Source: a virus
Virus record (IMG/VR): IMGVR_UViG_3300037245_003526
Coordinates: 88,297-152,296 of that record
Direction: 5' to 3' (one strand)
Length of the DNA stretch: 64,000 nucleotides
Part shown: one piece after another, positions 7,420-64,000 of the stretch
Layout: every line of letters starts with the position of its first letter
How positions within the stretch are numbered: the stretch's first letter is position 1
Program-made: the position numbers and the translations under genes
Notes under the pieces: generated by a model
Told to the model about the DNA's origin: nothing
Database searches by the model: none
What the model saw: only the letters and a program-made list of their open reading frames with translations

Positions 7420-7421
7420 AA

Positions 7422-7952: not shown

Positions 7953-7967
7953 TTTTTATTCTCCTTT

Positions 7968-8204: not shown

Positions 8205-8205
8205 T

Positions 8206-17937: not shown

Positions 17938-18243
17938 ATGGATATTATAGAAGAATATCTTGCTTACCTAAATGAAGCTGGTTTTGAGAAGATGCCTAAA
18001 GGTTGGACTAAAAAAAGTGTTAAAAAAGCAGGAGTAACTATCGCTAAAGATGTAGGAGAAAAAGATCCAAAAGAAAAAGGTTTTTTCAAAAAATGCGTTA
18101 AGAAAATGAGAGGTAATATTGATAATCCTGAAGGGTATTGTGCCGCTTTGAAAGATGAAAGTTTTGGCTCTACATATTGGCGTGGGAAAGGAAAGACTAA
18201 AAAACAAACAACAAAAATTGTAGCAAGACATAGGAATGTATAG
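17938..18243 (+). CDS. Lys-rich hypothetical protein
   Basis: Start set at the ATG (MDIIEEYL) behind RBS AGGAGAG. The track's upstream extension lacks an RBS. Confidence 0.4.
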   Translation: MDIIEEYLAYLNEAGFEKMPKGWTKKSVKKAGVTIAKDVGEKDPKEKGFFKKCVKKMRGNIDNPEGYCAALKDESFGSTYWRGKGKTKKQTTKIVARHRNV

Positions 18244-18253
18244 GAGAAGCATA

Positions 18254-18652
18254 ATGTTGAATAAATATTTACATATGCTATATGAACAATCTTCTGAAGA
18301 TCTAATAACTCAAAAAATAATAGATTTTTTTATAAAAAATCCATATCCAAAAGATGATATAGTACATGACCTTGCTGAAGAATTAGGTATAGATCCTGAT
18401 GATTTTGAGTCTAAAATATATGCAATTCTTAGTTCTTTTTTATCATTTGGAAGATTTAATGAAGAAGGAATGAAAGAAAGTGATTTTGATTCTGAACAAA
18501 TACGAATGGGAATAGAAGTGGAATATGAACATACAAAAAGTCCTATTATTTCAAAAAGAATTGCATTAGATCATCTTACAGAGTTCTCTGATTATTACAC
18601 CCGTTTGAAAAAAATGGAAGATGAAGCTGAAGAGGAACTTGGAGGAGATTAA
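18254..18652 (+). CDS. acidic hypothetical protein
   Basis: Start at the ATG with RBS AGGAG 8 nt upstream. Its stop overlaps the giant gene's start (TAATG). Confidence 0.4.
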   Translation: MLNKYLHMLYEQSSEDLITQKIIDFFIKNPYPKDDIVHDLAEELGIDPDDFESKIYAILSSFLSFGRFNEEGMKESDFDSEQIRMGIEVEYEHTKSPIISKRIALDHLTEFSDYYTRLKKMEDEAEEELGGD

Positions 18653-24600: not shown

Positions 24601-26292
24601 TCTGAACAAGCGCATAGTGGAACTTATTCAGCTAAATACGTAGCAACTGATGCTATTGGGCAGCATTATGTGTCTTGGTTAGCAAATCAATATAATGAAG
24701 GAGATTTAATTTATTTAGAAGCATGGGTTTATTTACCGAGTGGTCAGGATATAACGACATTAAATTTACAAGTATATGCGGATACTATTGATACTATAAC
24801 TACAACGGACACATGGGTTAAAATGTCTGGATATTTTGATGTTTTGAGTAGTCATTATTTTGATGTCAATGTAGAGCCTTGGTCCGGTATTGATTTAGAA
24901 AATCAGTATTTCTATATGGATGATATTGTAACCAAAAAAGTATCTGCTCCAGCACCGGGAGATTTTGTTTATCTTGATGGATTTGGTGAACATCTTGCTC
25001 CTACCATTTGGGATGAAGATGCTGCGGTATTTACGAGTGGAACTTATAGTTGGGAAGTTCAAGGAACAAATACAATTGCAAATGTTAGCAATGAACTTGA
25101 GATTACACATGTTGATAGTAACTTAGGAGCACAAAGCCGTTTCAGAGATGCATGGGATTTATCGGAAAATACTGTAATCGGGCAATGGTATAAATTTCAG
25201 GTTGATGCGTATTATACAGGTGGTTCGTCGGGTGTTTATTTAAGATTGTATGATGGAACTGCATATCATGATAGTGACAGCCTTACAGGAAGTAAAATAA
25301 CTTATACTCTTTATTTCAAAGCCTATAGTGAGACTGGATGTTATGTAAGATTGAATAATATGACTTCTGATAATTTAGTTTATATTGATAACCTTTCTTT
25401 ACAAAAAATAATGCCATTAGATAAATATATATATGAAATATACGATTTTGATGTTAATGGTAATGCTAAACTTAAAAACCATGTTGGAGATCTTGATTTA
25501 TCTGATTCAACAGCAGTAATAGATACAACAGGAACGATGCAAATTGCTACTATAGATGATTGGGTAGTAGGTGATGGAGTTGGACCTTATCAGGAAGTTG
25601 ATCGTACTCAAATTCTTAATAATAATGACTTTTCTGGTACTTGGGGAGCTAATGATTTACCTGAAGGTTGGGGTCAATTAGGAACACCTGATGCTAATAA
25701 TTATTTTGAAAAAGACGATACTAATAACAGAATAAGAATTGTTACTAATAGTAATACTATAGGCATTGCTCAATCTGGCCTGTTGTTTGTAGAGACACTG
25801 TATTATTATGAATGCGATGTATATTCTGCAACTGGAGGAATAATATTACGTACTGGGCATTCTGACCTTCATATAACTCTTGATTCAGCAGGGATATATA
25901 GTGGATTTTTTATCGTTCCTACTGGTAAATCAGCAATTTTTTATCTTAGAGATGGAGCTATTTCAGGAGATGTAGTAATTAACTATGTAAAAATATATGA
26001 AGTATCCAGATCGGTACAAGTTACAGGTTCTCAAACAGCAGAATCTTCAATACTTCAAGATGCAAGTGAAGATACAACTGCAGAATTTAGAATTTCATGG
26101 ACATTAGCAGACCGTACAGCAGGAGGTACAACTCCTACAGCAGGTGGTACTGATGGAACTGAAGTAATTACAAATGATGATCATACTGAAACTTTAATAA
26201 CAGAAGATACAAGTGATTCAGGATTAAAAATAAGTACAGGATGTATTGGAACAGTTGATGATTTAACAATTGAAGAATTAATTTATTGGTAA
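18652..26292 (+). CDS. giant modular virion-associated protein (2546 aa). Repeated carbohydrate-binding-like jelly-roll modules suggest a fibre or adhesin.
   Basis: Uninterrupted 7.6-kb ORF. It has three copies of a ~650-aa supermodule. The recurring blocks are ERSSEQAH.GTYS ... WYIDDVSI, WDADA.VFTSG.Y.W ... VYIDNLSLEP, NHVGDLDLSD ... IDDWVVGDGVG, and SVQVTGSQSAETS ... DRTAGGTTPTAGGTDGT ... GLKISTGFMGR.DD.TIEE. Aromatic/Gly-rich blocks are typical of CBM or lectin folds. Confidence 0.5.
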   Translation: MARETEGFHYTFIHTVFGSFINDTLEFFADYLYPRFEHQVVGTYDKAVEYITKKDQYTREEDKPNLPAIILNPDGEFNLDEANTGARSIYRFPNLMSRFSSMIYDPIYQDNNNKVTVGFTRLKGTIELLLLLNSFYEYFDVKIFLIQMFGGEGKYIHPVEFDSFIIIPNDLYTFTYANDVTGLTYNLDWTGAGIESKLVRTTNRTEIVVPGKIRPTYAIRGMSDASTRHGGIDSLSDYRLTVQVEYEIELPSYMILETDYIVEHVNLDLRYGSSYSEYSDYNNELPQGRYLTRTSWDSGLSETEHSEFDSDDLPDEAEIVQKIELESRTRYFYELTNADIDSTSDIFIIIFEEILQEERYYLIVNSKYGAMTYDLHYDIHNSQTRIQIKRETTSALEAGDIIELYVYKLIQYLAELGATAIIGTDLTANVEITILLTSTSIIQSDIYSDLTIGVVEISSGTSSIVSDVSISVLTIGVIEVLSSTSLIETSCNGLLQFGLPESLSGTANITSYVDNTAIIYYKYLDSSPAIQSNTTSSLQLGHVESLSSSVNITTSVDHTGLIYIIVSLSASPIIQSNTTSSLLLGHEESLSGTSNITSNTTSSLLLGHEESLSGTSNITSYVDNTAIIYFKYLDASCVIETSCDGLLINYIERQTDKGFNNVTVESASYITQISNTDPAVATFVGGADIVVDGDMESDDAAWFSQGTPTVQERSSEQAHAGTYSRKFTVDAVSEGLRQNFTGISWNGVPQMATFWIYGDGVNELNIIVAGSSALGQVDSTVYPASWTKVFLYFDGDSDTTPYLLIRSSGSSGTWYIDDVSIQEVADVDEGDFIVLDEFGDHLTPTLWDADASVFTSGVYAWQGYNGNTVANVGNELEVTYVDDQRGAYSSFRDSYDLSRNLVVGEWYIFQIDAYYIGGASGVKVRLQNSGSFDSDPLTGSKTTYTWVFKALTIFGCATTQISMSAGNKVYIDNLSLEPIMALDNNVYEIYDIVDNTAKLRNHVGDLDLSDSTSATGAGTCKVITIDDWVVGDGVGSYIDIDRDSPELVIDGDMTSAINWQVGAGWSIGGGVATSDGSPGYLNQNSIITTGKVYKVEFEVTAYTSGTIIGYINSPWDWIETATGTYSYILEATSESLRFYSAAFIGSIDNVSIKEVSDISVQVTGSQSAETSIIQNVNEIVDEELRTSFSVIDRTAGGVTPTAGGTDGTEVITNGDHSENLITVGTDDSGLKISTGFMGRVDDLTIEEVERGSKLLGTSNITTIDSSAFMTNFIYLDASCVIETSCDGLFINYVERQINGDFSEISLGSNIDISQITNADPAVATFTLGTDLWDADAAVFTSGTYSWLPYTNTIANVGNELEITFVDHSRGAYCYLRDAHDLISDLTVGQWYKLSVDAYYTGGASGVQLRLAVETPILSDLLTGIKTTYTFYFVATSVNGHDLSFLNMGASNVVYIDNLKIEPFAGIVEEGDFINLGGFGDVLSPDLASGWDFTSGWSTSVECTIDDSDSFTTTGSSRSVYITTIMEVGKWYKVTIVGSTSSSDIRCIAGSSIPGSNEPGFGVHYLKCTGIARFYIQNTTAGITDITTLEIEEVKSIDDYIYEVGAFTDNTAPLRNHVGDLDLSDLAGVTGAGYGQVATIDDWTVDDGVGPHFSYTSIIYNEVVNGDMELDTSWVSVLTPTVQERSSEQAHSLTYSRKITVDAEYEGVQQTIPGSADYGLYKITAWIYGDATNKLAAYLDTESVLVYYSDVEGDVYPASWTKITWYSILDEGTNPIVAFVSGQGDTTGTWYIDDVSILKVYSSVQVTGSQSAETSLLQDVNEIIDADFRILWTVEDRTAGGTTPTAGGTDGTTEIIINGDHSSEILTAVGTDDSGLKISTGFMGRIDDITIEELKQYTEFSGTSNITTSDSTAVIFGFTAVPRQTNEGFGEITLGSDINISQITNTNPALVTFADIGADDVTNGDNEAALFTYNNSARGGTTQSSEQAHSGTYSAKYVATDAIGQHYVSWLANQYNEGDLIYLEAWVYLPSGQDITTLNLQVYADTIDTITTTDTWVKMSGYFDVLSSHYFDVNVEPWSGIDLENQYFYMDDIVTKKVSAPAPGDFVYLDGFGEHLAPTIWDEDAAVFTSGTYSWEVQGTNTIANVSNELEITHVDSNLGAQSRFRDAWDLSENTVIGQWYKFQVDAYYTGGSSGVYLRLYDGTAYHDSDSLTGSKITYTLYFKAYSETGCYVRLNNMTSDNLVYIDNLSLQKIMPLDKYIYEIYDFDVNGNAKLKNHVGDLDLSDSTAVIDTTGTMQIATIDDWVVGDGVGPYQEVDRTQILNNNDFSGTWGANDLPEGWGQLGTPDANNYFEKDDTNNRIRIVTNSNTIGIAQSGLLFVETLYYYECDVYSATGGIILRTGHSDLHITLDSAGIYSGFFIVPTGKSAIFYLRDGAISGDVVINYVKIYEVSRSVQVTGSQTAESSILQDASEDTTAEFRISWTLADRTAGGTTPTAGGTDGTEVITNDDHTETLITEDTSDSGLKISTGCIGTVDDLTIEELIYW

Positions 26293-43854: not shown

Positions 43855-44125
43855 TTGTGAAATTTGTAAAAGATCATTTCCTTCTTTAGATACACATCAT
43901 ATACATAGTCTTAGTTTAGATGGTGTAAATAAAGAATGGAATAAATGTTATATTTGTCCATCGTGTCATAGGTTAGTTCACATAGGTGAAATAATACTTG
44001 AAGGAAGATTTAGAACAACTAAAGGTAATACATTAATTTTTAGAAATAAAGAAGAAGAATCAATAACACAATTTGAGGATCCTCGTGTGTGGTTAATTGG
44101 TAAGGAGAAAAAAGATGAAAAGTAA
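43841..44125 (+). CDS. HNH endonuclease
   Basis: CEIC ... THHIHS ... CPSCHRLVH. Apparent TTG start that overlaps the upstream gene. Confidence 0.5.
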   Translation: MKLNNCEICKRSFPSLDTHHIHSLSLDGVNKEWNKCYICPSCHRLVHIGEIILEGRFRTTKGNTLIFRNKEEESITQFEDPRVWLIGKEKKDEK

Positions 44126-45326
44126 AAATATCATAATATTTGGTGGAGATGGTTTTTGTGGATGGCCAACAGCTCTTTATTTATCAAAAGCAGGTTATAA
44201 TATTACTATTGTAGATAACTTATCTAGACGAAAAATAGATGTTGAATTAGAATGTCAATCTCTTACTCCCATTGCTTCTATTACAAATCGTAGAGCTATG
44301 TGGCAATCAAGGTCAGGTAATGTTATTCATTATGCTAATATAGATGTCCATGATAATTTTCATAGACTTCTTACTATGATTAATGAAATTAAACCTTTAG
44401 CGGTCATTCATTTTGCTGAACAGAGGGCAGCACCCTATTCAATGAAGAGTCCTTGGCATAAGAGATATACGGTTAATAATAATTTAAATGCTACTAATAA
44501 TATATTGGATGCGATTGTTGAATCAGGTTTAGATATTCATGTTGTTCATTTAGGAACAGCTGGTTATTATGGTTATTCTTCAGTAGGAATGAAAATTCCT
44601 GAAGGGTATCTTAAAGTCAAAGTTGATGTTGATGGAGAAGAAAAAGATCTTGAAATAATGTATCCTCCAAATCCAGGATCTATATATCATTTAACTAAAT
44701 GTCAAGATGCTTTGTTTTTTCATTATTATAATAAGAATGATGCTTTAAGAATAACTGATTTACATCAAGGTATTGTTTATGGATGTCAAACTGATGAAAC
44801 AATAATACATGAAGATTTAATTAATCGTTTTGACTATGATGGTGATTATGGAACTGTATTAAATAGGTTTGCTATACAAGCTGCTATAGGTCATCCATTA
44901 ACTATATATGGTACAGGTGGACAAACAAGAGCATTTATTCATATTTCAGATACAGTTAAATGTATTAAATTAGCTATTGAAAATCCTCCAGCAGAAGGTG
45001 ATCGTGTTAGAGTTTTAAATCAAGCTGCTGAATGTTTAAATGTACATGATTTAGCAGACACAATAAAAAGACTTACTGGAGCAGAAATTAGATATTATAA
45101 AAATCCTAGAAATGAAGATCCTAAAAATGAGTTAAAATTTGCTAATGAAGGTTTTAAAAGTTTAGGATGGGAACCTAAATTATTAGAATATGCATTAATA
45201 GAAGATGTTATGAAAATTGCTCATAAATGGAAAGATAGAGTTGATATTGATAAAGTAATACCTACTTCATTATGGGATAAAAATAAAGAGGTTGATAAAA
45301 TAGGAGCATTTATACCAGAAAAATAG
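44115..45326 (+). CDS. UDP-sulfoquinovose synthase (SQD1)-like SDR
   Basis: IIIFGGDGFCGWPTALYLSKAGYNITIVDNLSRR closely parallels the SQD1/Agl3 N-terminus (GGDGYCGW). Start at 44115 behind RBS AAGGAG. Confidence 0.5.
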   Translation: MKSKNIIIFGGDGFCGWPTALYLSKAGYNITIVDNLSRRKIDVELECQSLTPIASITNRRAMWQSRSGNVIHYANIDVHDNFHRLLTMINEIKPLAVIHFAEQRAAPYSMKSPWHKRYTVNNNLNATNNILDAIVESGLDIHVVHLGTAGYYGYSSVGMKIPEGYLKVKVDVDGEEKDLEIMYPPNPGSIYHLTKCQDALFFHYYNKNDALRITDLHQGIVYGCQTDETIIHEDLINRFDYDGDYGTVLNRFAIQAAIGHPLTIYGTGGQTRAFIHISDTVKCIKLAIENPPAEGDRVRVLNQAAECLNVHDLADTIKRLTGAEIRYYKNPRNEDPKNELKFANEGFKSLGWEPKLLEYALIEDVMKIAHKWKDRVDIDKVIPTSLWDKNKEVDKIGAFIPEK

Positions 45327-45337
45327 GAGACTAAAAA

Positions 45338-46318
45338 ATGGCGAATTGGTTAATAACAGGTGGGTGTGGTTTTATAGGATTGAATTTAGTTAAGGAGTTA
45401 GCAGATGAAGGAGGACATGAAATAAGAGTAGTTGATAATATGTCATTCGGTAAAGCTGATGACCTTAAATATGTTTGTGAATATAAACATACACATCCAA
45501 ATAATTTTAAAGAACCTGTAGTAGAATTAGTAGAAGTTGATATTAAAGATAAATTTTATATGAATCAAGTAATGGAAGATATTGATTATGTAGTTCATTT
45601 AGCAGCTATAAGCGGAGTTAGACTTTCAGTTGATGATCCCACAACCAGCTTTACAACAAATGTTGATGGTACTTTTAATTTACTTGAAGCAGCTAGAAAA
45701 AATAATATTAAAAAGTTTATATTTGCTTCAAGTGGCGCTGGAGTTGGAGATCATAAACCACCAATTCATGAAGATTTACCAGCAAGACCAGTATCTCCAT
45801 ATGGGGCAACTAAATTAGCTGGTGAAGGTTTATGTACTTCTTATTATCATTCATTCGGACTTGAAACTACTTCATTAAGATTTAGTAATGTTTATGGTCC
45901 TTTTTCTCATCGTAAAGAAAGTCTTGTAGCAAAATTAGTAAAACGAGTATTAGATAATAAAACTTTTAATATATATGGTGATGGTAATCAAACAAGAGAT
46001 TTTGTATATGTAGATGATTTAGTTAATGCAATAAAACTTTGTGTTTCTACAGAAGATATTGGAGGAGAAATATATCAATTATGTACAGGTAATGAATCTT
46101 CAATAAATTTCATTATTGGTGAAATAATACATATACTTAAAAAGAGAGCGTTTGATGATTTTAAACTTGAAATAGTAGAAGAAAAAATTGGAGATTTAAA
46201 AACAAATTGGGCAGATAATACAAAAATATATAATCACTTAGGATGGTCTCCGCAAGTTAAATTAGATGAAGGTCTTGAAAATACTATAGGTTGGTTAATC
46301 GAAAATTATAAAAAGTAG
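45338..46318 (+). CDS. NAD-dependent nucleotide-sugar epimerase/dehydratase
   Basis: WLITGGCGFIGLNLV Rossmann motif and YGATK catalytic motif. Confidence 0.55.
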   Translation: MANWLITGGCGFIGLNLVKELADEGGHEIRVVDNMSFGKADDLKYVCEYKHTHPNNFKEPVVELVEVDIKDKFYMNQVMEDIDYVVHLAAISGVRLSVDDPTTSFTTNVDGTFNLLEAARKNNIKKFIFASSGAGVGDHKPPIHEDLPARPVSPYGATKLAGEGLCTSYYHSFGLETTSLRFSNVYGPFSHRKESLVAKLVKRVLDNKTFNIYGDGNQTRDFVYVDDLVNAIKLCVSTEDIGGEIYQLCTGNESSINFIIGEIIHILKKRAFDDFKLEIVEEKIGDLKTNWADNTKIYNHLGWSPQVKLDEGLENTIGWLIENYKK

Positions 46319-50701: not shown

Positions 50702-51253
50702 ATGGAGAAAATTCTTATCCTTTATAGTGGTGGTGCTGATTCCAGACTTATGTTAGAGCTAGCACATAAGATTGGATTATCAATCAATTGCCTTCTTATC
50801 AATTATGATCAGTTACATTCAGAAGAATTATCAATAGCAAAAAAACAACTAGAAGAATTAGAGATACCATACCAAACAGTCGATTTAAAAAATCTAAATA
50901 TTAATAGCGGTCTTACCGGAGATGGTATTAAAGATGATTCAGGTGATGTCCATGAAATGTATGTACCAGGAAGAAATACAGTATTTTTAAGTATAGCTCT
51001 TAGTATAGCTGAAAGTAAAGATATTAAAACAATATGGTTAGGATGTGATTGGTCAGATCGTTTAAATCTTTTTCCTGATTGTTATCAGGAATATATAGTA
51101 CAAATAAATGAGTTATTTAAAATTGCAGGTCCAAAATCAATAAAGGTTGAAGCTCCATTAATGGGATTAAGTAAAAAAAATATATTTGGATTACTTAAAT
51201 CATTTGGAGTAGATGAAGGAGATATTTTTTCTGGTTATGGGGATTTATCATGA
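50702..51253 (+). CDS. queC: QueC-like 7-cyano-7-deazaguanine synthase (PP-loop ATPase), C-terminally short
   Basis: ILYSGGADSRL PP-loop, YDQLH, VPGRNTVFLSIALSIAE, and DCYQEY. It lacks the C-terminal Cys4 zinc site of canonical QueC. Confidence 0.5.
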   Translation: MEKILILYSGGADSRLMLELAHKIGLSINCLLINYDQLHSEELSIAKKQLEELEIPYQTVDLKNLNINSGLTGDGIKDDSGDVHEMYVPGRNTVFLSIALSIAESKDIKTIWLGCDWSDRLNLFPDCYQEYIVQINELFKIAGPKSIKVEAPLMGLSKKNIFGLLKSFGVDEGDIFSGYGDLS

Positions 51254-51612
51254 AAAAAGAAAAGTTAAAAGAGGGAATTAAATATGACTTTGGAAAAAGT
51301 CGATATGATCTGATAGACCCATATGCATTAGAACAAGTTATACAAATATACACATTTGGTTGTAATAAATATGAAGATCATAATTGGCGAAAAGGAATGA
51401 AATGGAGTAGAGTATTCGGTGCACTAATGAGACATTGTTGGGCATTCTGGAGAGGAGAAGAAATAGATCCAGAAAGTAAATTACCTCATATGGCACATGC
51501 TGCATGGAATTGTCTTACCTTAATTAATTATTCAAAGTATAGAACAAAATTTGATGACAGATGGATAGAAACAGAAGAGAAAATAATCGAAAACGTAAGG
51601 AGAGGAAAATGA
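51250..51612 (+). CDS. phage NTP pyrophosphohydrolase-like protein (dATP/dGTP diphosphohydrolase N-domain family, from memory)
   Basis: GKSRYDLIDPYAL ... KYEDHNWRKGMKWSRVFGALMRHCWAFWRGEEID ... HMAHAAWNCLTL. This matches the pattern GKxRYDLxPxxAL ... KYGDxNWxKG ... SRxxDSALRH ... DHLAAAAWN that I recall for that family. Confidence 0.4.
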   Translation: MKKEKLKEGIKYDFGKSRYDLIDPYALEQVIQIYTFGCNKYEDHNWRKGMKWSRVFGALMRHCWAFWRGEEIDPESKLPHMAHAAWNCLTLINYSKYRTKFDDRWIETEEKIIENVRRGK

Positions 51613-52019
51613 TTAAAGTATACTTGGCAGGTTATGCAGGAGAAAAGGAATATAGAGAATATGTTTCTAAAAGATATGGAAGACATTTAGATATATTTGA
51701 TCCAATGAAAGAAGTTGACTCTAAAATTTTAGAAAAATATAGTGGAGGAACTTTATCAGAAAAAGATGTTGCTCTTATTGTAGAAGGAGATAAAGCAGCA
51801 ATTGAATCATGTGATATAGTTATTGTATATATAAGGAGAGCTTCTTTTGGAACAGCAATGGAAACGCTTCATGCATTCAAAAATAAAATTCCTGTTTATT
51901 TAATTGATTCAGATAATAAATGGAGAGAAGATGTTTGGGTACGATACCATACAACTAAGACATTCGATGATATAGATTCATGCTTCAGTTATATTTTAGA
52001 AAGCATAAAAGGATTGTAG
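51609..52019 (+). CDS. nucleoside 2-deoxyribosyltransferase-like / dNMP N-hydrolase-like protein
   Basis: MIKVYLAGYAG N-terminus and FGTAMETLHAFKNKIPVYLI (G-T-x-x-E catalytic motif). Start at 51609 (ATGA overlap, RBS AAGGAGAGG). Confidence 0.4.
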   Translation: MIKVYLAGYAGEKEYREYVSKRYGRHLDIFDPMKEVDSKILEKYSGGTLSEKDVALIVEGDKAAIESCDIVIVYIRRASFGTAMETLHAFKNKIPVYLIDSDNKWREDVWVRYHTTKTFDDIDSCFSYILESIKGL

Positions 52020-55652: not shown

Positions 55653-56185
55653 ATTGTTTAAAATGTGGTGTTGAAACTACAAATACTAAATTTTGTGGAA
55701 GAGCATGTTCTGCTTCATATAACACAAAAGGTAGAAAACATTCTATTGAAACCAAAAGAAAAATAAGTAATACATTAGGTGGAGTAGGTAAAGCAGAAGA
55801 AGAACATTTTTGTAAATTATGTGGACATAATATTTCAAGTGTTAGAAAAACTAAATTATGTGATACATGTAAAATTGGTGAATTTTTATGTGATGTATGT
55901 GGAAAAATTTGTAAAACAGAATTAGGATTAAAAAGTCATAAAGAACAAGGTTGTATTAACAGAAAAATAGGTATAGATTCACAAGGTTATGAATATTTTA
56001 CTGATAATGAAAATAAATTTAAATATGTTCATAGATCTAAAATTGAAGAATTGTTAGGAAGAAAACTAAAAACTAATGAAGTTGTTCATCATAAAGATGA
56101 AATTAAAAAAAATAATGATATAGAAAATCTAGAACTAATGACTATATCTAAACATTCAAAACTTCATGCTGATATGCGCCGATAG
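55649..56185 (+). CDS. HNH endonuclease with N-terminal zinc ribbon and a C2H2-like finger
   Basis: CLKCG ... CGRAC, CDVCGKICKTELGLKSHKEQ, and C-terminal VHHKDEIKKNNDIENLELMTISKHSKLH. Its 3' end overlaps tRNA-Trp. Confidence 0.5.
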   Translation: MNCLKCGVETTNTKFCGRACSASYNTKGRKHSIETKRKISNTLGGVGKAEEEHFCKLCGHNISSVRKTKLCDTCKIGEFLCDVCGKICKTELGLKSHKEQGCINRKIGIDSQGYEYFTDNENKFKYVHRSKIEELLGRKLKTNEVVHHKDEIKKNNDIENLELMTISKHSKLHADMRR

Positions 56186-56251
56186 CTCAAGCGGGTAGAG
56201 TACTGGTCTCCAAAACCAGTGGTGGGGATTCGAGGTCCTCTCGGCGTGCCA
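56176..56251 (+). tRNA. tRNA-Trp (anticodon CCA)
   Basis: Manual cloverleaf. Acceptor GCGCCGA / TCGGCGT, anticodon arm CTGGT-CTCCAAA-ACCAG, T-loop TTCGAGG, 3' GCCA. Confidence 0.55.
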
Positions 56252-56273
56252 TAAAAACGAAAGGAAAATAAGA

Positions 56274-56558
56274 GTGGATGATATAAAAAGATATAAATCA
56301 CAAAACGAAATAAATATACCTATAGTTAGAAACTACAAAGATTTATATATTCTACTTCAAAGACCAATGAATTTTGAAGATGGTTCTGAAGCATATATTC
56401 ATTCTGAAGGAATTATAAGAGAAGATTGGCCGAATGCTCATTTATGTTTTTTAAAATATACAGCAGATAATAAAATAAGGGATTGGCTTTGGTTATTGAG
56501 TCCAGACGAAAAAAAAGGTATGTGTATTTTTGACTTTAAACCAGAGTATACAGTTTAA
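56274..56558 (+). CDS. hypothetical protein. Paralog A of a tandem duplicated pair.
   Basis: MDDIKRYKSQNEI ... C.FDFKPEY. Confidence 0.4.
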   Translation: MDDIKRYKSQNEINIPIVRNYKDLYILLQRPMNFEDGSEAYIHSEGIIREDWPNAHLCFLKYTADNKIRDWLWLLSPDEKKGMCIFDFKPEYTV

Positions 56559-56575
56559 ACGAAAGGTAGTTCTTA

Positions 56576-56860
56576 ATGAATGAATTAAAAAGATATAAAT
56601 CAGCAGAAGAATTGAATAACCCATATTTTGTTAAAGATCATAAGGACTTGAATAAATTAGATAAAAAGTTTGATTTAAAAGAGGGTGATGAAGCAGTTTG
56701 GATTATTGATAGAACTGGCTGTCCAGAATGGTGGAATGGCGAACGTAATTATTATAGAAATATTAATGATTCTAAAAATCCACAATATATATGGTGCCCA
56801 ATTAAGGGTGAAGATGGTGGTTTATGTTTTATTGACTTTGAACCAGAATACTCAATTTAA
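56576..56860 (+). CDS. hypothetical protein (paralog B)
   Basis: MNELKRYKSAEEL ... CFIDFEPEY. Same length as paralog A (94 aa). Confidence 0.4.
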   Translation: MNELKRYKSAEELNNPYFVKDHKDLNKLDKKFDLKEGDEAVWIIDRTGCPEWWNGERNYYRNINDSKNPQYIWCPIKGEDGGLCFIDFEPEYSI

Positions 56861-56877
56861 ACGAAAGGAAATTAACA

Positions 56878-57261
56878 TTGAAGATAGCATTTGATTTTCA
56901 CGGAGTATTACAAACGTATCCAGAAATTTTAAAACCTATTTTAATATCATTAAATAAAGAACATAATTTAATAATATTATCTGGACCACCATGGAAAGAA
57001 ATTTTTGTAGAACTTACTGACGCAGGTTATACTTTAGGTACCCACTATGATGAAATAATTTCTGTAGTTGATTGGATTAAAGAACAAGGTATTCCAATGC
57101 ACCAAAATGAAAATGAATCATGGTATTGTGATGATGAAAGTTGGTGGTCAAGTAAAGCTAAAATTTGTAAACAAAATCATATAAGTGTTTTAGTAGATGA
57201 TAAGATACAATATAAAGAACATATTGAAAATAATTTTCCATTATTTTTTCATGTGAAATAA
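56878..57261 (+). CDS. small HAD-like hydrolase (5'(3')-deoxyribonucleotidase-like). TTG start.
   Basis: IAFDFHGVL (motif I) and VLVDD (motif IV). Confidence 0.35.
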   Translation: MKIAFDFHGVLQTYPEILKPILISLNKEHNLIILSGPPWKEIFVELTDAGYTLGTHYDEIISVVDWIKEQGIPMHQNENESWYCDDESWWSSKAKICKQNHISVLVDDKIQYKEHIENNFPLFFHVK

Positions 57262-57262
57262 A

Positions 57263-57338
57263 CCTCCCATAGCTCAACAGGTAGAGCATTCGCCTTATAA
57301 GCGAAAGACGATAGGTTCGATTCCTACTGGGAGGACCA
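57263..57338 (+). tRNA. tRNA-Ile (anticodon UAU, reads AUA)
   Basis: Manual fold. Acceptor CCTCCCA / TGGGAGG, D-stem GCTC/GAGC, anticodon arm TTCGC-CTTATAA-GCGAA, T-loop TTCGATT, ACCA. Confidence 0.5.
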
Positions 57339-57343
57339 TATAT

Positions 57344-57418
57344 TCCTTAGTGGTGAAATTGGCATCACGTATGGCTGTTAACCATAAATTACAGGTTCGA
57401 CCCCTGTCTGAGGAGCCA
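57344..57418 (+). tRNA. tRNA-Asn (GUU)
   Basis: Manual fold. Acceptor TCCTTAG / CTGAGGA, D-stem GTGA/TCAC, anticodon arm TATGG-CTGTTAA-CCATA, T-arm ACAGG-TTCGACC-CCTGT, GCCA. Confidence 0.5.
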
Positions 57419-57424
57419 AATTAT

Positions 57425-57498
57425 TCTCAGGATGTATACGGAGCATTATTAATTGACGCGCGCTTTAGTAGGAAGTTCGACCCTTCCCCTGAGAGCCA
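57425..57498 (+). tRNA. tRNA-like element or pseudo-tRNA (no canonical anticodon arm)
   Basis: Acceptor TCTCAGG / CCTGAGA plus GCCA, and a good T-arm GGAAG-TTCGACC-CTTCC. The central 39 nt, including GACGCGCGC, does not fold into a D-arm and anticodon arm. Confidence 0.3.
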
Positions 57499-57504
57499 TT
57501 TAAT

Positions 57505-57580
57505 GGGTGAGTAGCTAAACTGGCTTAGCGTCGAGCTGTTAACTCGAAGTATGAGAGTTCAAGTCTCTCCTTGCCCTCCA
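57505..57580 (+). tRNA. tRNA-Asn (GUU), second copy
   Basis: Manual fold. Acceptor GGGTGAG / CTTGCCC (2 G-U pairs), D-stem GCTA/TAGC, anticodon arm TCGAG-CTGTTAA-CTCGA, T-arm GAGAG-TTCAAGT-CTCTC, TCCA. Confidence 0.45.
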
Positions 57581-57601
57581 TTAAAAACGAAAGGATACTT
57601 T

Positions 57602-57826
57602 ATGATAAGTCCATGTAAAAAATGTATTAATCATTCAAGAATATTTCCAGTATGTTTTGATAAATGCAAATCAATAGAACAATTTCAACATTCATTATTT
57701 CATACTTCTATTATTGAAGAAGCAGAAGATTATGAATATATAACTCAAGATTGTCTATGGAAATATGAAGGTATATATAGACTAGCTAATACGAAAACAC
57801 CTCAAATAGAAGCTCAACTATATTAA
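57602..57826 (+). CDS. Cys-rich zinc-ribbon family member (short)
   Basis: MISPCKKCINHSRIFPVCFDKCKS. Start behind AAACGAAAGGA. The track's longer ORF overlaps the tRNA. Confidence 0.4.
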   Translation: MISPCKKCINHSRIFPVCFDKCKSIEQFQHSLFHTSIIEEAEDYEYITQDCLWKYEGIYRLANTKTPQIEAQLY

Positions 57827-57829
57827 TAA

Positions 57830-57904
57830 TGGGGGATCGTCTAATGGTCAGGACCCAAGATTTTGAATCTTGTAATCGGAGTTCGAATCTCTGTCCCTCA
57901 GCCA
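57830..57904 (+). tRNA. tRNA-Gln (UUG)
   Basis: Manual fold. Acceptor TGGGGGA / TCCCTCA, D-stem GTCT/GGAC, anticodon arm CAAGA-TTTTGAA-TCTTG, T-arm CGGAG-TTCGAAT-CTCTG, GCCA. Confidence 0.5.
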
Positions 57905-57908
57905 AATA

Positions 57909-58172
57909 ATGCCGAGTAGTATATTGATTATTACAACCGAACTTAAAGGGAGAATGAGGTTTAATTCCTCACTCGGCAACCACTTAAAAATTATGAAAGA
58001 AAATCTATATTGGTTAAACACGACTTGGGGTTGTGGTGGAATACTAACAAATGATAAGAATATAATTACAAATTCATGTCCATTATATGGTTGGATGAAA
58101 GGAAATAAAATAAGTTATATTCTAAAGTATCTTGATAAAAAAAGAGTATTAAGAAAATGTAAAAAAATATAG
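57909..58172 (+). CDS. hypothetical protein
   Basis: 87 aa. A 7-bp inverted repeat (GCCGAGT / ACTCGGC) spans its 5' end. Confidence 0.3.
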   Translation: MPSSILIITTELKGRMRFNSSLGNHLKIMKENLYWLNTTWGCGGILTNDKNIITNSCPLYGWMKGNKISYILKYLDKKRVLRKCKKI

Positions 58173-58187
58173 AAAGGAAGGTATATT

Positions 58188-58748
58188 ATGAACAAGGTGA
58201 TTGTTTTAAATAGCGATTACAGTTTTCTAAATTTAGTACATTGGAAAACAGCAATGCGCCTGGTTTGTAAGAATAAAGTTGAGGTTTTAAAAGAGACTAC
58301 TAGGATTTTAACTGACGAATTAAAAACTTGGAAAATTGCTATACCATTAGTAATAAGACTTGTTAAAATAGTTCGTACTATTTATAAGACTAGAGTACCT
58401 TTTAGTAAAAAGAATGTATTTGTTCGTGACAATTTTACATGTCAATATTGTGGAGAAGAGTTTAATAGTAAAACTAAAAAGAGAGTTTTGAATGCCTCTG
58501 GACATCATGAAAGCATACTATTAAATATAGATCATTTAAATCCTACCTCAAAAGGTGGGAAATCAACATTTGAAAATTGTGTTGCTTCATGTAAAACTTG
58601 TAATAATAAGAAAGGTGATAGGAGTCTAAGAGAACTAAATATGGTTTTAGCAAGGAGTCCATTTCAACCAACTATTATGGAGTTCATGATTCTTAAAATG
58701 AAATCTTTAGGAATAGATGAGATTCTTAAAGACTTAGGAGTATATTAG
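58188..58748 (+). CDS. HNH endonuclease
   Basis: CQYCGEEF ... HHESILLNIDHLNPTSKGG ... NCVASCKTCNNKKGD. Confidence 0.55.
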   Translation: MNKVIVLNSDYSFLNLVHWKTAMRLVCKNKVEVLKETTRILTDELKTWKIAIPLVIRLVKIVRTIYKTRVPFSKKNVFVRDNFTCQYCGEEFNSKTKKRVLNASGHHESILLNIDHLNPTSKGGKSTFENCVASCKTCNNKKGDRSLRELNMVLARSPFQPTIMEFMILKMKSLGIDEILKDLGVY

Positions 58749-58755
58749 ATTAATG

Positions 58756-58842
58756 GCGGGTACCGTCCACGGGGACAAGCGGCCTTGAAAGCCGTTGGCG
58801 TGTGTAAAAGCATGGGCGTTCGACTCGTCTACTCGCCGCCAT
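58756..58842 (+). tRNA. tRNA-Ser (UGA), class II with long variable arm
   Basis: GC-rich island. Acceptor GGCGGGT / ACTCGCC plus GCCA, 3-bp D-stem, anticodon arm GCGGC-CTTGAAA-GCCGT, ~18-nt variable arm, T-arm GGGCG-TTCGACT-CGTCT. Confidence 0.5.
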
Positions 58843-59156: not shown

Positions 59157-59354
59157 ATGGAACGATTCAGAAATAAACAGACTGAATGTAAATATTCAGA
59201 TATAAATAATAAAGGTTTTTGTAATTATAACAACTGGCACAATGGTCTGTGCTTTTGTACTAAAAAAGAATGGGAAGGAAAAAAGTTAAAAGCATATTTA
59301 TGTTGTCCATATCTTTTTTTAAATGATACAGAAGAATACGGAAAGGAAAGGTGA
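59157..59354 (+). CDS. small Cys-rich hypothetical protein
   Basis: 65 aa. CKYS ... FCNYNNWHNGLCFC ... CCPY. Confidence 0.35.
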   Translation: MERFRNKQTECKYSDINNKGFCNYNNWHNGLCFCTKKEWEGKKLKAYLCCPYLFLNDTEEYGKER

Positions 59355-60475
59355 GAAAAGTGAAGACTGATAAATTAGCATCATTAATCCCAATCCACGA
59401 ACTAGAACAATCCGCACAACAACAAGTCTATAATAATCTAGCGTTTGACTTTTTATTAAAGTTAGCTATCATGCCAGATTGTCATACAGGATATTTATTA
59501 CCAATAGGTGGAGTTGCATTATTAGATAATGTTGTATCTCCTGAATACGTTGGATATGATGAAGGTTGTGGTATGTGTTGTATAGTAACAGATATACCTT
59601 ACTATGATATACTTAAAAATGATAAAAAGAATCAAAGATTATTTGATAAAATATATAAACATATTCCTGTTGGATTTAATATGAGAGAAAATTCTCTTCA
59701 TTGTTTTGATGAATTCAAATCAGCATCTGGTGATAAAGCTTTAAATAAAAAAGTAAATGAAAAATTATGGAAACAGCTAGGTACACTGGGAGGGGGTAAT
59801 CATTTTATTGAATTGGGTAAAGATAAAAATGATATGTTTTGTATCACTATACATTCTGGTTCACGTAATCCTGGTCATTCTGTTGCTGGTTTTTATATGA
59901 AGAAAACAAAACTCATTGATAAAGATTTACCTAAAGGATTCTTCCATCTACATTCAGAATGGGGTCAGATGTTTATACAAGACTTAGAATTTATGCTTGA
60001 ATATGCTCTTGCTAATAGAACAGAGATGATGAAAAATATTTTAGATATAGTTGGTTTATCTCATAACTTTTTATTTAAGATGATTAATGAAAATCATAAT
60101 CATGCTATTGTTCAGAATAATAATACAGTACTTCATAGAAAAGGTGCTACTCCATCATTAAAAAATCAACTTGGAGTTATACCTGGTAATATGAGAGATG
60201 GTGTTTATGTTGTTAAAGGTCTTGGTAATAAAAAATATCTTAATTCATCTTCTCATGGAGCTGGAAGAAAGGGTTCTAGAAGATGGGCAAAAGAGTCTAT
60301 TACAATGGAAAGATTTGAACAGTCAATGGATGGAATAATAGCTAAAGTTGATAAGTCTACATTAGATGAAGCACCTGATGCTTATAAAAATGTTGACAAG
60401 GTAATTCAAGCACAGGCAGGAATTGTAGTAGATGTTATTAATCATATCCAACCTATTATAAATGTGAAAGGATAA
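59351..60475 (+). CDS. rtcB: RtcB-family RNA ligase (3'-phosphate/5'-OH)
   Basis: MPDCHTGY ... PIGGVA, GGGNHFIELG, HSGSRNPGH and SSHGAGR. These are the canonical RtcB metal-binding and GMP-His motifs. Confidence 0.65.
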   Translation: MRKVKTDKLASLIPIHELEQSAQQQVYNNLAFDFLLKLAIMPDCHTGYLLPIGGVALLDNVVSPEYVGYDEGCGMCCIVTDIPYYDILKNDKKNQRLFDKIYKHIPVGFNMRENSLHCFDEFKSASGDKALNKKVNEKLWKQLGTLGGGNHFIELGKDKNDMFCITIHSGSRNPGHSVAGFYMKKTKLIDKDLPKGFFHLHSEWGQMFIQDLEFMLEYALANRTEMMKNILDIVGLSHNFLFKMINENHNHAIVQNNNTVLHRKGATPSLKNQLGVIPGNMRDGVYVVKGLGNKKYLNSSSHGAGRKGSRRWAKESITMERFEQSMDGIIAKVDKSTLDEAPDAYKNVDKVIQAQAGIVVDVINHIQPIINVKG

Positions 60476-61657: not shown

Positions 61658-61978
61658 ATGATTGTAGAAAAAGTAAAACAATTTTTTTCAAGTGAGAATA
61701 AGGAAATATTTAAATTTATAAAAAAAGAAAAGTACCCTTGTAAAGAATGTCTTGTAGTACAAGTATGTTCAGAACTTTGTGATAAAGTTGAAATTGATGA
61801 ATATAAAATTTTTAATAAAATGATTACTAATAGTTGTTGTCCTGATTGTGGTGGAACAAAACTTTATGAAGGTTCAAGTGGAGGATGTTGTCAAAATATT
61901 TTTTGTACAAATTGTAACCATGGATTTAATGTAACAGCTCCTTTTGAAAAAATTGAAAGAATAGGAAAAATGAGATAG
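61658..61978 (+). CDS. Cys-rich double zinc-ribbon protein (family member)
   Basis: PCKECLVVQVCSELCDKV ... CPDCGG ... CTNCNH. Confidence 0.5.
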   Translation: MIVEKVKQFFSSENKEIFKFIKKEKYPCKECLVVQVCSELCDKVEIDEYKIFNKMITNSCCPDCGGTKLYEGSSGGCCQNIFCTNCNHGFNVTAPFEKIERIGKMR

Positions 61979-62028: not shown

Positions 62029-62403
62029 GGGCGTGAAATGGCTTCGACAGGGATGATGAAGAGAATATTGCGATTGGTAATGATCAATACCTTAAAAGAT
62101 CAACTAAACATAAATGCAGACAATTTAGCATTTGCAGCTGCTGACGATTATGCCACAGCTGCACTTGCTGCCTAAAGAGGCGGCACGTCAAACCTTTGAT
62201 GCTATCTAAAAGGATCTTGGCGTCGACTAGATAGATAGGTTAACTTTAGTTTGTGAATACTAAGGTAAAACCGAAATCCGAATTCACAAACTTCTGAGGG
62301 TTTATGTCCTTTTATAAACTCAGAAGTATTTAAAAGGACTATAATCGTAGATATATGATTGGATGGTTTCTGGACCTCGGTTCGACTCCGAGCACGTCCA
62401 CCA
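62029..62403 (+). ncRNA. ssrA: tmRNA (ssrA). Tag peptide (A)DNLAFAAADDYATAALAA.
   Basis: 5' GGGCGTGAAATGGCTTCGACAGGG (tmRNA hallmark TTCGAC-GGG). Tag ORF GCA GAC AAT ... CTT GCT GCC TAA at 62116-62175, ending ALAA-stop. 3' tRNA-like end GGACCTCGG-TTCGACT-CCGAG plus CACGTCC-A-CCA pairing with the 5' GGGCGTG. Confidence 0.7.
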
Positions 62404-62500
62404 TAACTTAAACAGGAAGGAAGGAGGGAAAATAAGAAACAATTACTATTGACTAGATTAGTACCATAATGTGAATTAAATTTAAATTGGAGATATTAAA

Positions 62501-62944
62501 ATGAATAAAATATTAATAGTTTTAGCTACTTTTGCATTTCTTTTCATCGCAGCATGTGCTCCTACTGTTTGTCCTGATCCTCCACCTTGTCCACCTTGTC
62601 CATCTTGTCCATGTCCCTGTACTACGGACTTGGAAATAGTACCGTCAGAATGGGCATCGAATTGTGAGATTAATGTCGATGGTATCTTGGTAGTTAATAT
62701 TAAGAATAAAGGAACCAGTGATTGTCCAGCAACATCGACTACTATAGATTTCTTTGATCATGGTTTATTTGTAATTCCAACGCCGCCAATAGCTGCAGGA
62801 GCTACAATATCATTACCTACAGTTCCCCTTCCTAGTGGATGTCATACCCCAGATTGTATTTTCGGTATTATTATTGACTCTGCTAACGATGTAAATGAAG
62901 GTAATGAATCTAACAATACTGCTCCTGGAACGTGTATTGGATAG
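62501..62944 (+). CDS. Pro/Cys-rich lipoprotein
   Basis: Signal peptide with lipobox FIAAC, then CPDPPPCPPCPSCPCPC. Confidence 0.45.
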   Translation: MNKILIVLATFAFLFIAACAPTVCPDPPPCPPCPSCPCPCTTDLEIVPSEWASNCEINVDGILVVNIKNKGTSDCPATSTTIDFFDHGLFVIPTPPIAAGATISLPTVPLPSGCHTPDCIFGIIIDSANDVNEGNESNNTAPGTCIG

Positions 62945-62950
62945 AAGTTA

Positions 62951-62998
62951 AAATGAGATGAGATGTTATTATATTATAATAGCATCTCATTTTTTTTG
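62951..62998 (+). terminator. rho-independent terminator
   Basis: AAATGAGATG ... CATCTCATTT stem, followed by T8. Confidence 0.6.
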
Positions 62999-63047
62999 TC
63001 ATTTTTTTTGTAATAAGGAACATATTATAAATATTTAACCCTAAATT

Positions 63048-63971
63048 ATGGAGGTGACAATGGAGCAGAATAACGCAGATGTTGGTATTATTGTTGGACG
63101 ATTCCAAGTTGATGAGTTACATGAAGCGCATCTAGATCTTATTCAGACTGTAAAAGATCGACATGCGAAGGTTATCATCTTTCTCGGTTTAAGTCCAGTT
63201 CAATGTACCACAAATAACCCGTTAGATTTTGAAGCAAGAAAACAGATGATACAAGTTATATATTCTGATATAAATATCTTGTACATCAAAGATATGAGCT
63301 CTGATAACGAATGGTCCAAAAAACTAGATGAACAAATTAAAGATCTAGTTGGTCCAAATCAATCGGTTGCTTTATATGGAGGAAGAGAGTCATTCATTGA
63401 TCATTATAATGGTAAACACAGTTGTATTGAGTTGAAGCATAAACAAACTAGTTTTGTTAGCGGTTCTGTAATAAGGAAGAGTATATCAAGAACAGTTAAA
63501 TCTTCTCCTGACTTCAGAGCTGGTGTAATATGGACTACTGCAAATCAATACACTAATGCTATGCCTACTGTTGATGTTGCAATTCTAAATGAGGATAAAA
63601 CGAGTATATTACTCGCTCGAAAAAAATACGAAACTATGTATAGATTTGTAGGTGGTTTTGTAGATGCGGGTGAAACTTTTGAAGCAGCAGCACGTAGAGA
63701 AGTTATGGAAGAAACAACACTATCTATACATGACCCAAAATATATAGAAAGTTTTGTTATTGATGATTGGCGTTATAAAAATGAAAAGGCAAAAATTACA
63801 ACATTATTTTTCACAGCTAAATATATTTCTGGTAAACCTGAAGCAAGAGATGATATTGAAGAATTGCGATGGTTTGAAATGAATAAAAAATTAAAAGATG
63901 TTGTAATCCCAATTCATTTACCTATGCTTGAAAAACTAAGTTTTTTAAGCTTCTTTGATGATAAAATTTAA
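63048..63971 (+). CDS. bifunctional NMN adenylyltransferase (NadM-type) / Nudix hydrolase (NatV-like)
   Basis: N-terminal GIIVGRFQVDELHEAH (archaeal-type NMNAT H-x-G-H-like box) and C-terminal Nudix box GGFVDAGETFEAAARREVMEETT. Confidence 0.55.
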   Translation: MEVTMEQNNADVGIIVGRFQVDELHEAHLDLIQTVKDRHAKVIIFLGLSPVQCTTNNPLDFEARKQMIQVIYSDINILYIKDMSSDNEWSKKLDEQIKDLVGPNQSVALYGGRESFIDHYNGKHSCIELKHKQTSFVSGSVIRKSISRTVKSSPDFRAGVIWTTANQYTNAMPTVDVAILNEDKTSILLARKKYETMYRFVGGFVDAGETFEAAARREVMEETTLSIHDPKYIESFVIDDWRYKNEKAKITTLFFTAKYISGKPEARDDIEELRWFEMNKKLKDVVIPIHLPMLEKLSFLSFFDDKI

Positions 63972-64000
63972 TCCTAAGTTAATTGTTAAAAAGGAGAGAA

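Follow-up and report, generated by a model that had tools for sequence, protein, structure and literature searches.

At one end of a 64-kb stretch of phage DNA (IMG/VR record IMGVR_UViG_3300037245_003526, positions 88,297 to 152,296; the whole of this stretch is called the window below), a gene at 63048-63971 encodes what is, to judge from its sequence, a NadM-type nicotinamide mononucleotide (NMN) adenylyltransferase (NMNAT) fused to a C-terminal Nudix hydrolase, and a gene for a nicotinamide phosphoribosyltransferase of the NadV type (Nampt) begins just beyond the last base of the window. We read the fusion gene as the first half of a two-gene NAD+ reconstitution module of the NARP2 type, with Nampt as the downstream half, and put the probability of this reading at about 85%. 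The window has a G+C content of 29.3% and is densely packed with phage-like genes; its source is an uncultured jumbo phage of low G+C. The features that make up the pair, all on the plus strand, are as follows.

62955-62993, plus strand: terminator-like hairpin with an 18-bp stem and a T-run after it, found by a consensus scan only, between the gene for a CARDB protein and the NMNAT-Nudix gene
63048-63971, plus strand: NMNAT-Nudix (NatV-like) gene, an uninterrupted open reading frame (ORF) of 307 amino acids (aa) counted from the first ATG, with stop codon TAA at 63969-63971
63078-63527, plus strand: NadM-type NMN adenylyltransferase domain, approximately residues 11-160
63096-63131, plus strand: motif 1, GRFQVDELHEAH, residues 17-28, a variant of GRFQPFHxGH with the (H/T)xGH ATP-binding signature
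63456-63479, plus strand: motif 2, VSGSVIRK, residues 137-144, the counterpart of ISSTxxR
63540-63947, plus strand: C-terminal Nudix hydrolase domain, approximately residues 165-300
63654-63722, plus strand: Nudix box, GFVDAGETFEAAARREVMEETTL, residues 203-225, following GX5EX7REUXEEXGU with T in place of the last G
63990-64000, plus strand: ribosome-binding site of the Nampt/NadV gene, AAAGGAGAGAA, the final bases of the window, with the ATG 4 bases past 64000

The ORF at 63048-63971 is real, as the sequence-only reading had taken it to be: its frame is uninterrupted, it carries Pfam domains, and a homologue search with its product returned 1501 database proteins at E<=1e-10, the best 120 of which are 52-100% identical. 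Chance is excluded by these homologues together with the Pfam E-values of the three genes considered in this analysis (this one and the NADAR and LigD genes discussed below). A 100%-identical protein (P0001, 303 aa) is carried by a public contig of 244,552 bp, where the gene call begins at the second ATG, at 63060 in the window; this ATG also yields 303 aa here and has GGAGGTG ahead of it at a spacing of 5 nt, and a start at 63060 is more likely than one at 63048. The terminator-like hairpin upstream suggests that the NMNAT-Nudix and Nampt genes begin their own transcription unit, and the pair is probably transcribed separately. The terminator scan also marked an 11-bp hairpin, GCTTGAAAAACTAAGTTTTTTAAGC, within the final codons of the NMNAT-Nudix gene (63926-63950, or 1741-1765 of the overlapping contig L007 described below); with its weak T-tract it may be a chance match.

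The NMNAT-Nudix protein and its Nampt partner

The proposal that this protein is a NatV-like NadM NMNAT/Nudix fusion, made from the sequence alone, has been borne out by Pfam, NCBIfam, sequence matches to the Protein Data Bank (PDB), alignment, Foldseek and hhalign. Pfam places CTP_transf_like (Cytidylyltransferase-like) on residues 15-96 (E 8.6e-5) and NUDIX on residues 173-283 (E 1.8e-18), and the best NCBIfam matches spanning both halves are the bifunctional NMN adenylyltransferase/Nudix models, PRK05379. The closest solved structures by sequence are those of the Francisella enzyme (2qjt; phmmer E 7.7e-11, both domains matched) and the Synechocystis enzyme (2qjo; E 2.8e-10), which in the N-terminal half match query residues 9-120. 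When a profile of the clade to which the protein belongs is aligned by hhalign to NatV of phage KVP40, the two correspond over 273 columns (query 12-294, NatV 4-338) with 97.8% probability and an E-value of 1.1e-12, and a hidden Markov model (HMM) of the clade's N-terminal half scores 47.2 bits on NatV of phage RSP15 and 19.8 bits on that of KVP40. KVP40 is absent from the tblastn matches at E<1e-5, and its natV gene was located with the RSP15 protein as a bridge query.

The predicted fold points the same way. An AlphaFold2 model built from 61 clade sequences has a mean predicted local distance difference test score (pLDDT) of 88.1 and a predicted template modelling score (pTM) of 0.79, and the six best Foldseek matches of this model in the PDB are all NadM-Nudix chains (2r5w/2qjo/2qjt), matched over their full length with E-values from 1e-15 to 2e-17. 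The global fit to these chains gives a template modelling score (TM-score) of ~0.49 and a root-mean-square deviation (RMSD) of ~12 A, suggesting that the relative orientation of the domains, or the linker, differs in the model.

Conservation of the catalytic residues was assessed across 61 clade sequences with 51-79% identity to the query. Motif 1 takes the form GRFQ-x3-L-[HT]-x-[AG]-H in the clade, with an insertion of two residues relative to the GRFQPFHxGH of KVP40, RSP15, Francisella and Synechocystis; H25 shows the classic H/T alternation, with histidine in 59 sequences and threonine in 2, position 27 is alanine in 49 (the query included) and glycine in 12, and H28 is kept in 60. An ISSTxxR-type motif and an NPxxxER segment are hallmarks of archaeal and NadM NMNAT enzymes, and both have counterparts here: R143 of motif 2 is found in 61/61 members, as are P58, E62 and R64 of the NPxxxER-type segment (NPLDFEAR in the query, NPLDFExR in the clade) and W89, and all of these are shared with the NatV proteins of KVP40 and RSP15. 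In the Nudix box, E218 and E222 are invariant (61/61), R217 is kept in 59 and E221 in 60 of the 61, and position 224 is glycine in 33. Alignment with KVP40 and RSP15 NatV leaves G17, R18, F19, H28, R143, G203, R217, E218, E221 and E222 invariant, while the clade lacks ~33 residues of the inter-domain linker present in canonical NatV. The residues of the (H/T)xGH motif and of the Nudix box, on which the sequence-only reading had staked its assignment, are therefore conserved on alignment, and the catalytic signatures as a whole are preserved in a clade-specific form.

That reading had also predicted a Nampt/NadV gene just downstream of position 64000, and the gene is there. The Pfam scan of the window, which covered the concatenated products of all ORFs of at least 85 aa, found no Nampt, phosphoribosyl pyrophosphate (PRPP) synthetase, macro, SIR2, TIR, NadR or PnuC domain inside it, and tblastn with two phage Nampts likewise gave no Nampt there. 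The Logan contig L007 (6.3 kb) overlaps the end of the window, its bases 1-1815 corresponding to window positions 62186-64000 with 0 mismatches (window coordinate = L007 coordinate + 62185), and carries a gene of 460 aa at L007:1819-3201, 33 nt past the NMNAT-Nudix stop, whose ATG falls at window coordinate 64004. Its product has the Pfam domains NAMPT_N and NAPRTase and passes the cutoff of the NadV-type NCBIfam model PRK09198 (508.8 bits against 405). It aligns from end to end with mammalian NAMPT proteins of solved structure (E ~1e-97 to 1e-100), with visible conservation of the active-site segments DSYK, HDFGFRG, GTDT, ATEHS and RPDSG, and shares 36% identity with the NadV of a KVP40-like vibriophage. 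A NadV-type Nampt and an Nmnat homologous to that of KVP40 are thus encoded by the same phage, which is the combination that defines NARP2.

The linkage extends well beyond this phage. A Nampt gene lies downstream on the same strand in five of six phage records, namely Tunturi_5 and RSP15 (both annotated), LR756502, LR756504 and LR745206, the last with a distant homologue of 24% identity; LR756500 has no Nampt within 6 kb. On five long metagenomic contigs carrying clade members Nampt is always downstream, and in four it is the very next gene, whereas in the fifth (L012, with protein P0097) it lies 1.4 kb downstream behind three genes, one of them predicted to be NAD-kinase-like. Among 80 clade loci in IMG/VR, 64 have a Nampt-family match no more than 4 kb away and always on the same strand, downstream in 62 and upstream in 2. 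In ~35 of them the distance is at most 300 nt, and in 9 of the 64 the match is only 22-26% identical; 16 loci have no match, four of which have no downstream sequence. These counts are not independent, because some of the loci are near-duplicates. Two loci have further genes near the pair: on the contig of P0052 (L014) a PRPP synthetase gene follows Nampt and a macro-domain gene lies upstream of the pair, and in Tunturi_5 (L001) genes less than 10 kb away are annotated as an ADP-ribosyltransferase toxin and as a 'MutT/NUDIX hydrolase' of 1262 aa.

Predicted NAD+ rebuilding and the possible role of the pair

The two proteins would together form a short cycle. Nampt/NadV is predicted to convert nicotinamide and PRPP to NMN, and the NadM-type domain would then join NMN and ATP to give NAD+; the Nudix domain would most likely split ADP-ribose into AMP and ribose-5-phosphate, which the host PRPP synthetase (Prs) could return to PRPP. 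This biochemistry, though inferred, is well supported by the homology of both genes to characterized enzymes. The pair would in this way rebuild NAD+ out of both products of an NADase, and during infection it would keep NAD+ up, including under depletion by TIR- or SIR2-type effectors.

The suggested counter-defence role draws on experiments with the KVP40 system. KVP40 Nampt makes NMN and prefers PRPP (bioRxiv 10.1101/2024.02.11.579819), and Nampt and Nmnat of this phage together abolished type I Thoeris and DSR2 defence (bioRxiv 10.1101/2024.02.11.579819; summarised in PMC13464706). It had been stated from the sequence that NAD reconstitution counters Thoeris, DSR and SIR2 systems; for type I Thoeris and DSR2, the only two defences against which the KVP40 pair was tried, this agrees with what the pair does, and for SIR2 it is an extrapolation. 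NARP2 was found in ~1.1% of sequenced phages, 94% of the phages with a KVP40-type Nampt co-encode Nmnat, and no phage had both NARP1 and NARP2 (bioRxiv 10.1101/2024.02.11.579819). In the present phage no Pribosyl_synth/Adps-like protein was found in the window and the next 4.5 kb, a search that covered ~28% of the 244.5-kb contig.

Several observations weigh against a canonical NARP2 enzyme selected for counter-defence. The Pfam score of the NMNAT domain is marginal (23.2 bits against a gathering score of 21), and the PRK05379 models reach at most 58.3 bits against curated cutoffs of 354-449, which we attribute to the clade being too divergent for equivalog models built on bacterial proteins. 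Pairwise identity is just 21% to KVP40 NatV and 23% to RSP15 NatV. The glycine of HxGH is alanine in the query and in most of its relatives, and the two-residue insertion falls directly before this motif. The Nudix half scores higher with NudC than with NatV, which leaves its substrate uncertain, and NARP2 raises NAD+ even where there is no defence to counter, so that the selective benefit may be general metabolic support.

This last point gives rise to the strongest of the alternatives, namely a general auxiliary metabolic module whose selective value lies in boosting NAD+ in a phage that is large and replicates fast, and not in counter-defence. The biochemistry would be the same as in the NARP2 reading, only the selective reason differs, and the two roles are not mutually exclusive. 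KVP40 NARP2 raised NAD+ in cells without a defence system (bioRxiv 10.1101/2024.02.11.579819), NatV and NadV have been described as typical of jumbo phages (PMC7139368), the window is rich in metabolic genes, including two for NAD-dependent sugar epimerase/dehydratases and a glycan block of ~23 kb, and related loci add a NAD-kinase-like gene or a PRPP synthetase. The KVP40 pair is nevertheless sufficient against Thoeris and DSR2, and the recycling of ADP-ribose by the Nudix half suits an NADase scenario particularly well. We regard a purely metabolic purpose as possible though rather unlikely.

It is less likely again that the Nudix half acts as a NudC-like hydrolase of NAD(H) or NAD caps, or on another ADP-ribose derivative, in a role unlike that of canonical NatV. 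Four comparisons put NudC close. The best NCBIfam match for residues 164-282 is NAD+ diphosphatase, although at 58.8 bits this is far under the cutoff of 158; tblastn finds 38.8% identity to Salmonella NudC over residues 168-263; an HMM of the clade's Nudix domain scores 49.6 bits on Salmonella NudC against 31.2 on RSP15 NatV and 27.8 on KVP40 NatV; and Foldseek superposes the domain on NudC and NUDT12 with an RMSD of 1.6-2.1 A at 26-31% identity. The similarity is partial, however: the NudC alignment is limited to HMM positions 3-72 and ends at YVTSQ, where the SQPWPFPxS segment of NudC starts. In the alignment to Salmonella NudC this segment and the N-terminal zinc-binding domain are absent, and the clade has GSxxIDDWRYR instead. 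The alignments with NatV extend through the C-terminal half of the Nudix domain, where there is no NudC match, with DDWRYRSE..KIxT corresponding to FDAPERSERGRIIT, followed by DD..W..H with a conserved histidine. Assignment of this half to the NudC family was therefore rejected, the similarity stopping after the Nudix box and the SQPWPFPxS and zinc regions being absent; moreover, a NAD+ diphosphatase joined to a NAD+ synthase would make a futile cycle. On the strength of homology with the NadM-Nudix enzymes and NatV, ADP-ribose is most likely the main substrate. According to Lee, Li and Miller in J Virol 2017, the Nudix domain of KVP40 NatV reportedly accepts ADP-ribose, NAD+ and NADH.

A more speculative variant, to which we give little credence, is that the compact clade with HxAH, abundant in jumbo phages from the environment, is more than a shortened NatV: the fusion may have shifted in function, with the first half of its Nudix domain, which resembles NudC, altering the substrate range. 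If this were so, candidate substrates would be the glycocyclic ADP-ribose (gcADPR) signal of Thoeris, histidine-ADP-ribose (His-ADPR) immune signals or NAD-capped RNA, and one and the same protein would rebuild NAD+ while also breaking down the signals or by-products of defence.

Least probable of all, and very improbable in our judgement, is that the N-terminal domain is inactive or adenylylates a substrate other than NMN, as GRFQVDELHEAH in place of the expected GRFQPFHxGH and the marginal Pfam score might suggest. Across the 61 sequences W89, the two histidines of motif 1, the arginine of the ISSTxxR motif and the NPxxxER segment vary little or not at all, a mark of purifying selection that would be unexpected in a dead domain. 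The A/G (49 to 12) and H/T (59 to 2) exchanges are of a kind tolerated in motif 1, and the strict linkage to Nampt, the producer of NMN, favours NMN as the substrate.

Relatives of the compact clade

The protein is a compact, divergent member of the NatV subfamily, and an ordinary member of the already known NARP2 system. It resembles the KVP40 pair NatV and NadV in that a NadM-type NMNAT is fused to a Nudix domain, accompanied by a Nampt, with shared catalytic residues; it differs from KVP40 NatV in being ~35 residues shorter and in having a motif 1 with the insertion and with alanine for glycine. The arrangement differs as well, with no Nampt annotated within 3 kb of natV in KVP40 and the two genes only 33 nt apart here. 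The original biochemistry of KVP40 NatV and NadV is said to be that of the same 2017 J Virol paper by Lee, Li and Miller. A 361-aa gene upstream of Nampt in the KVP40-like phage D525 was considered as a candidate NatV and rejected, being unrelated by BLASTP and Pfam.

The bacterial NadM-Nudix enzymes of Francisella tularensis (2qjt, 2r5w) and Synechocystis (slr0787, 2qjo) are the best solved relatives by both sequence and fold and have the same domain order, but they are only ~20% identical to the query, whose scores fall short of the PRK05379 cutoffs and whose TM-score to them is ~0.49. NudC and NUDT12 have the Nudix box and preceding strands most similar to those of the query. NARP1 (Adps and Namat) and NARP3 (PnuC and NadR) share with the pair NAD+ as the end product and the proposed countering of NAD+ depletion; they differ in that neither Adps nor PnuC nor NadR turned up in the 64-kb window and the 4.5 kb beyond, and in that the Nampt of this pair is a NadV-type enzyme that uses PRPP.

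The nearest named relatives are in Tunturiibacter phage Tunturi_5 (gp218/gp217) and in LR756502, LR756504, LR745206 and LR756500, which belong to the same compact clade at 33-46% identity (tblastn). The order NMNAT-Nudix then Nampt is kept in four of the five, LR756500 being the exception, and their proteins are annotated merely as 'cytidyltransferase' or are unannotated. Several homologues, including P0001, are labelled 'bifunctional NMN adenylyltransferase/nudix hydrolase' by JGI. In INPHARED the compact clade accounts for 8 records, weak matches included, from a few huge/jumbo phages, against 477 records of the canonical type.

The locus would add an uncultured, low-G+C jumbo phage to the carriers of NARP2, and current understanding of phage NAD+ reconstitution is unchanged by it. 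Its main interest lies in the clade: a compact and divergent NatV subfamily, scarce among isolated phages and common in metagenomes, keeps a tight linkage to Nampt and is missed by the curated NadM-Nudix models, and searches seeded with KVP40 Nmnat alone may under-count NARP2. The HxAH variant and the short linker also offer natural sequence variation for structure-function studies.

NADAR, LigD and the other features of the window

The sequence-only reading had joined the pair to two further genes of the window in one NAD/ADP-ribose anti-defence toolkit. Both of these domain calls are correct by Pfam.

10376-10828, minus strand: NADAR-domain protein of the YbiA/Glu type, 150 aa (Pfam PF08719, E 2.1e-24, 87.1 bits against a gathering score of 35.1)
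644-1177, minus strand: stand-alone LigD 3'-phosphoesterase (PE)-like protein, 177 aa (Pfam LigD_N, E 1.3e-21, 77.2 bits against a gathering score of 31.1)

The NADAR protein matches phrog_1017 (E 2.4e-39) and passes the cutoff of TIGR02464, riboflavin biosynthesis intermediates N-glycosidase (81.3 bits against 73.7). Its closest solved structure is that of E. coli YbiA (2b3w, E 1.3e-14), to which it aligns LIE with LVE and so has glutamate in the last strand; in this alignment it has neither the histidine of the T4 AdfN type nor the aspartate of the DarG1 type at that strand. Glutamate there characterizes the YbiA-type and other general NADARs, aspartate those linked to DarT1 and histidine the T4 type (PMC11125620). 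Every NADAR/YbiA protein tested removed guanine-ADP-ribose in vitro, whereas in one study E. coli YbiA and the T4 NADAR gave no protection from DarT1 in cells (PMC11125620); several phage NADAR clades do reverse DNA ADP-ribosylation by DarT1 and counter DarTG1, with the YbiA-like branch treated as housekeeping (PMC11825919). The general claim that NADAR proteins reverse DarT-type ADP-ribosylation thus stands in vitro among those tested, but protection in cells depends on the subtype, and this protein is of the YbiA/Glu type and not of the AdfN or DarG1 type shown to counter DarT1. An anti-DarT role for it is possible, although nothing specific points to one.

The LigD PE domain is a DNA 3'-end-healing domain, and we know of no NAD or ADP-ribose link or substrate for it. 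The protein encoded here matches the PE structure of Pseudomonas aeruginosa LigD (3n9b, E 3.1e-18) and scores 91.3 bits with TIGR02777, under the equivalog-domain cutoff of 144; its gene adjoins a RuvC-like gene and a ribonucleotide reductase (RNR) gene.

That NMNAT-Nudix, Nampt, NADAR and LigD-PE act as one coordinated anti-defence toolkit is, in our view, highly unlikely. All four genes do occur in a single phage genome, the activities of other NADAR proteins described above would suit such a system, and a macro-domain gene stands beside the pair in one related locus. The NADAR and PE genes, however, are encoded on the opposite strand at a distance of 52 and 62 kb, in the company of genes of replication and repair (clamp-loader-like, helicase, dCMP deaminase, RuvC-like and RNR); the NADAR is of the branch described as housekeeping, the PE brings no known substrate of the required kind, and neither gene sits beside the pair in any of the five clade loci inspected. 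On these grounds we take the toolkit for a grouping by theme rather than an established unit.

The remaining features of the window are listed by position.

6201-9039, minus strand, and 61658-61978, plus strand: at least seven small Cys-rich paralogues with the pattern C-x2-C ... CPxC ... C-x2-C, ~75-130 aa each
18652-26292, plus strand: ORF of 2546 aa without a Pfam match at E<=1e-4; the gene before it (18236-18652) encodes a DUF5661 protein
~27330-50000, mostly plus strand: block of sugar/glycan biosynthesis or modification genes, ~23 kb (Pfam), unusually large for a phage
50702-51253, plus strand: QueC-like gene (Pfam E 2.2e-34)
51250-51612, plus strand: gene with a dATP/dGTP diphosphohydrolase N-terminal domain (Pfam)
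51561-52019, plus strand: nucleoside 2-deoxyribosyltransferase-like gene (Pfam)
56176-58841, plus strand: tRNA array of Trp(cca), Ile(tat), two Asn(gtt), Gln(ttg) and Ser(tga), with small ORFs and HNH genes interspersed
59351-60475, plus strand: gene for an RtcB RNA ligase (Pfam E 1.9e-74), with 2.6 kb between it and the pair downstream
62029-62403, plus strand: full-length transfer-messenger RNA (tmRNA), with the tag peptide ADNLAFAAADDYATAALAA by ARAGORN (Rfam RF00023, 132.6 bits, E 1.2e-51)
62501-62944, plus strand: CARDB protein of 147 aa (Pfam E 5.8e-9), between the tmRNA and the pair

The tandem copies of the Cys-rich paralogues, which have no Pfam match, lie at 6201-6563, 7168-7419, 7968-8291, 8206-8607, 8604-8840 and 8812-9039. 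The glycan block holds GT9 and GT1 glycosyltransferases, a sulfotransferase, many S-adenosylmethionine (SAM) methyltransferases, an NTP-transferase and cupin/mannose-6-P-isomerase-like proteins, along with the two NAD-dependent epimerase/dehydratases at 44097-45326 and 45338-46318. The three genes at 50702-52019 hint at a 7-deazaguanine or other nucleotide-modification pathway, and deoxyribosyltransferase-like or SLOG genes recur near the NARP2 pair in related loci. The gene after Nampt, outside the window at L007 3213-4037 (~65398-66222), encodes a radical-SAM protein of 274 aa; the QueC-like gene suggested QueE as a candidate identity, which was rejected, as the nearest NCBIfam models are those of the RlmN/Cfr RNA methyltransferases (TIGR00048, 72.4 bits, far under the cutoff), than which the protein is shorter.

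RtcB is also found 0.5 kb upstream of the NMNAT-Nudix gene on a 306-kb contig (with P0007), and RtcB near the pair may be a recurrent neighbourhood, serving for example tRNA repair after attack by an anticodon nuclease; the LigD-PE gene at 644-1177 would fit such an end-healing theme better than the NAD theme. A further tRNA gene, for Leu(taa), lies 4 kb past the window at L007 6058-6145. The CARDB protein has a signal- or lipoprotein-like N-terminus (…FLFIAAC…) and a stretch rich in Cys and Pro. Downstream of the tmRNA the CARDB gene follows after ~100 nt and the NARP2 pair after ~650 nt, and the tag sequence of the tmRNA might serve as a clue to the host.

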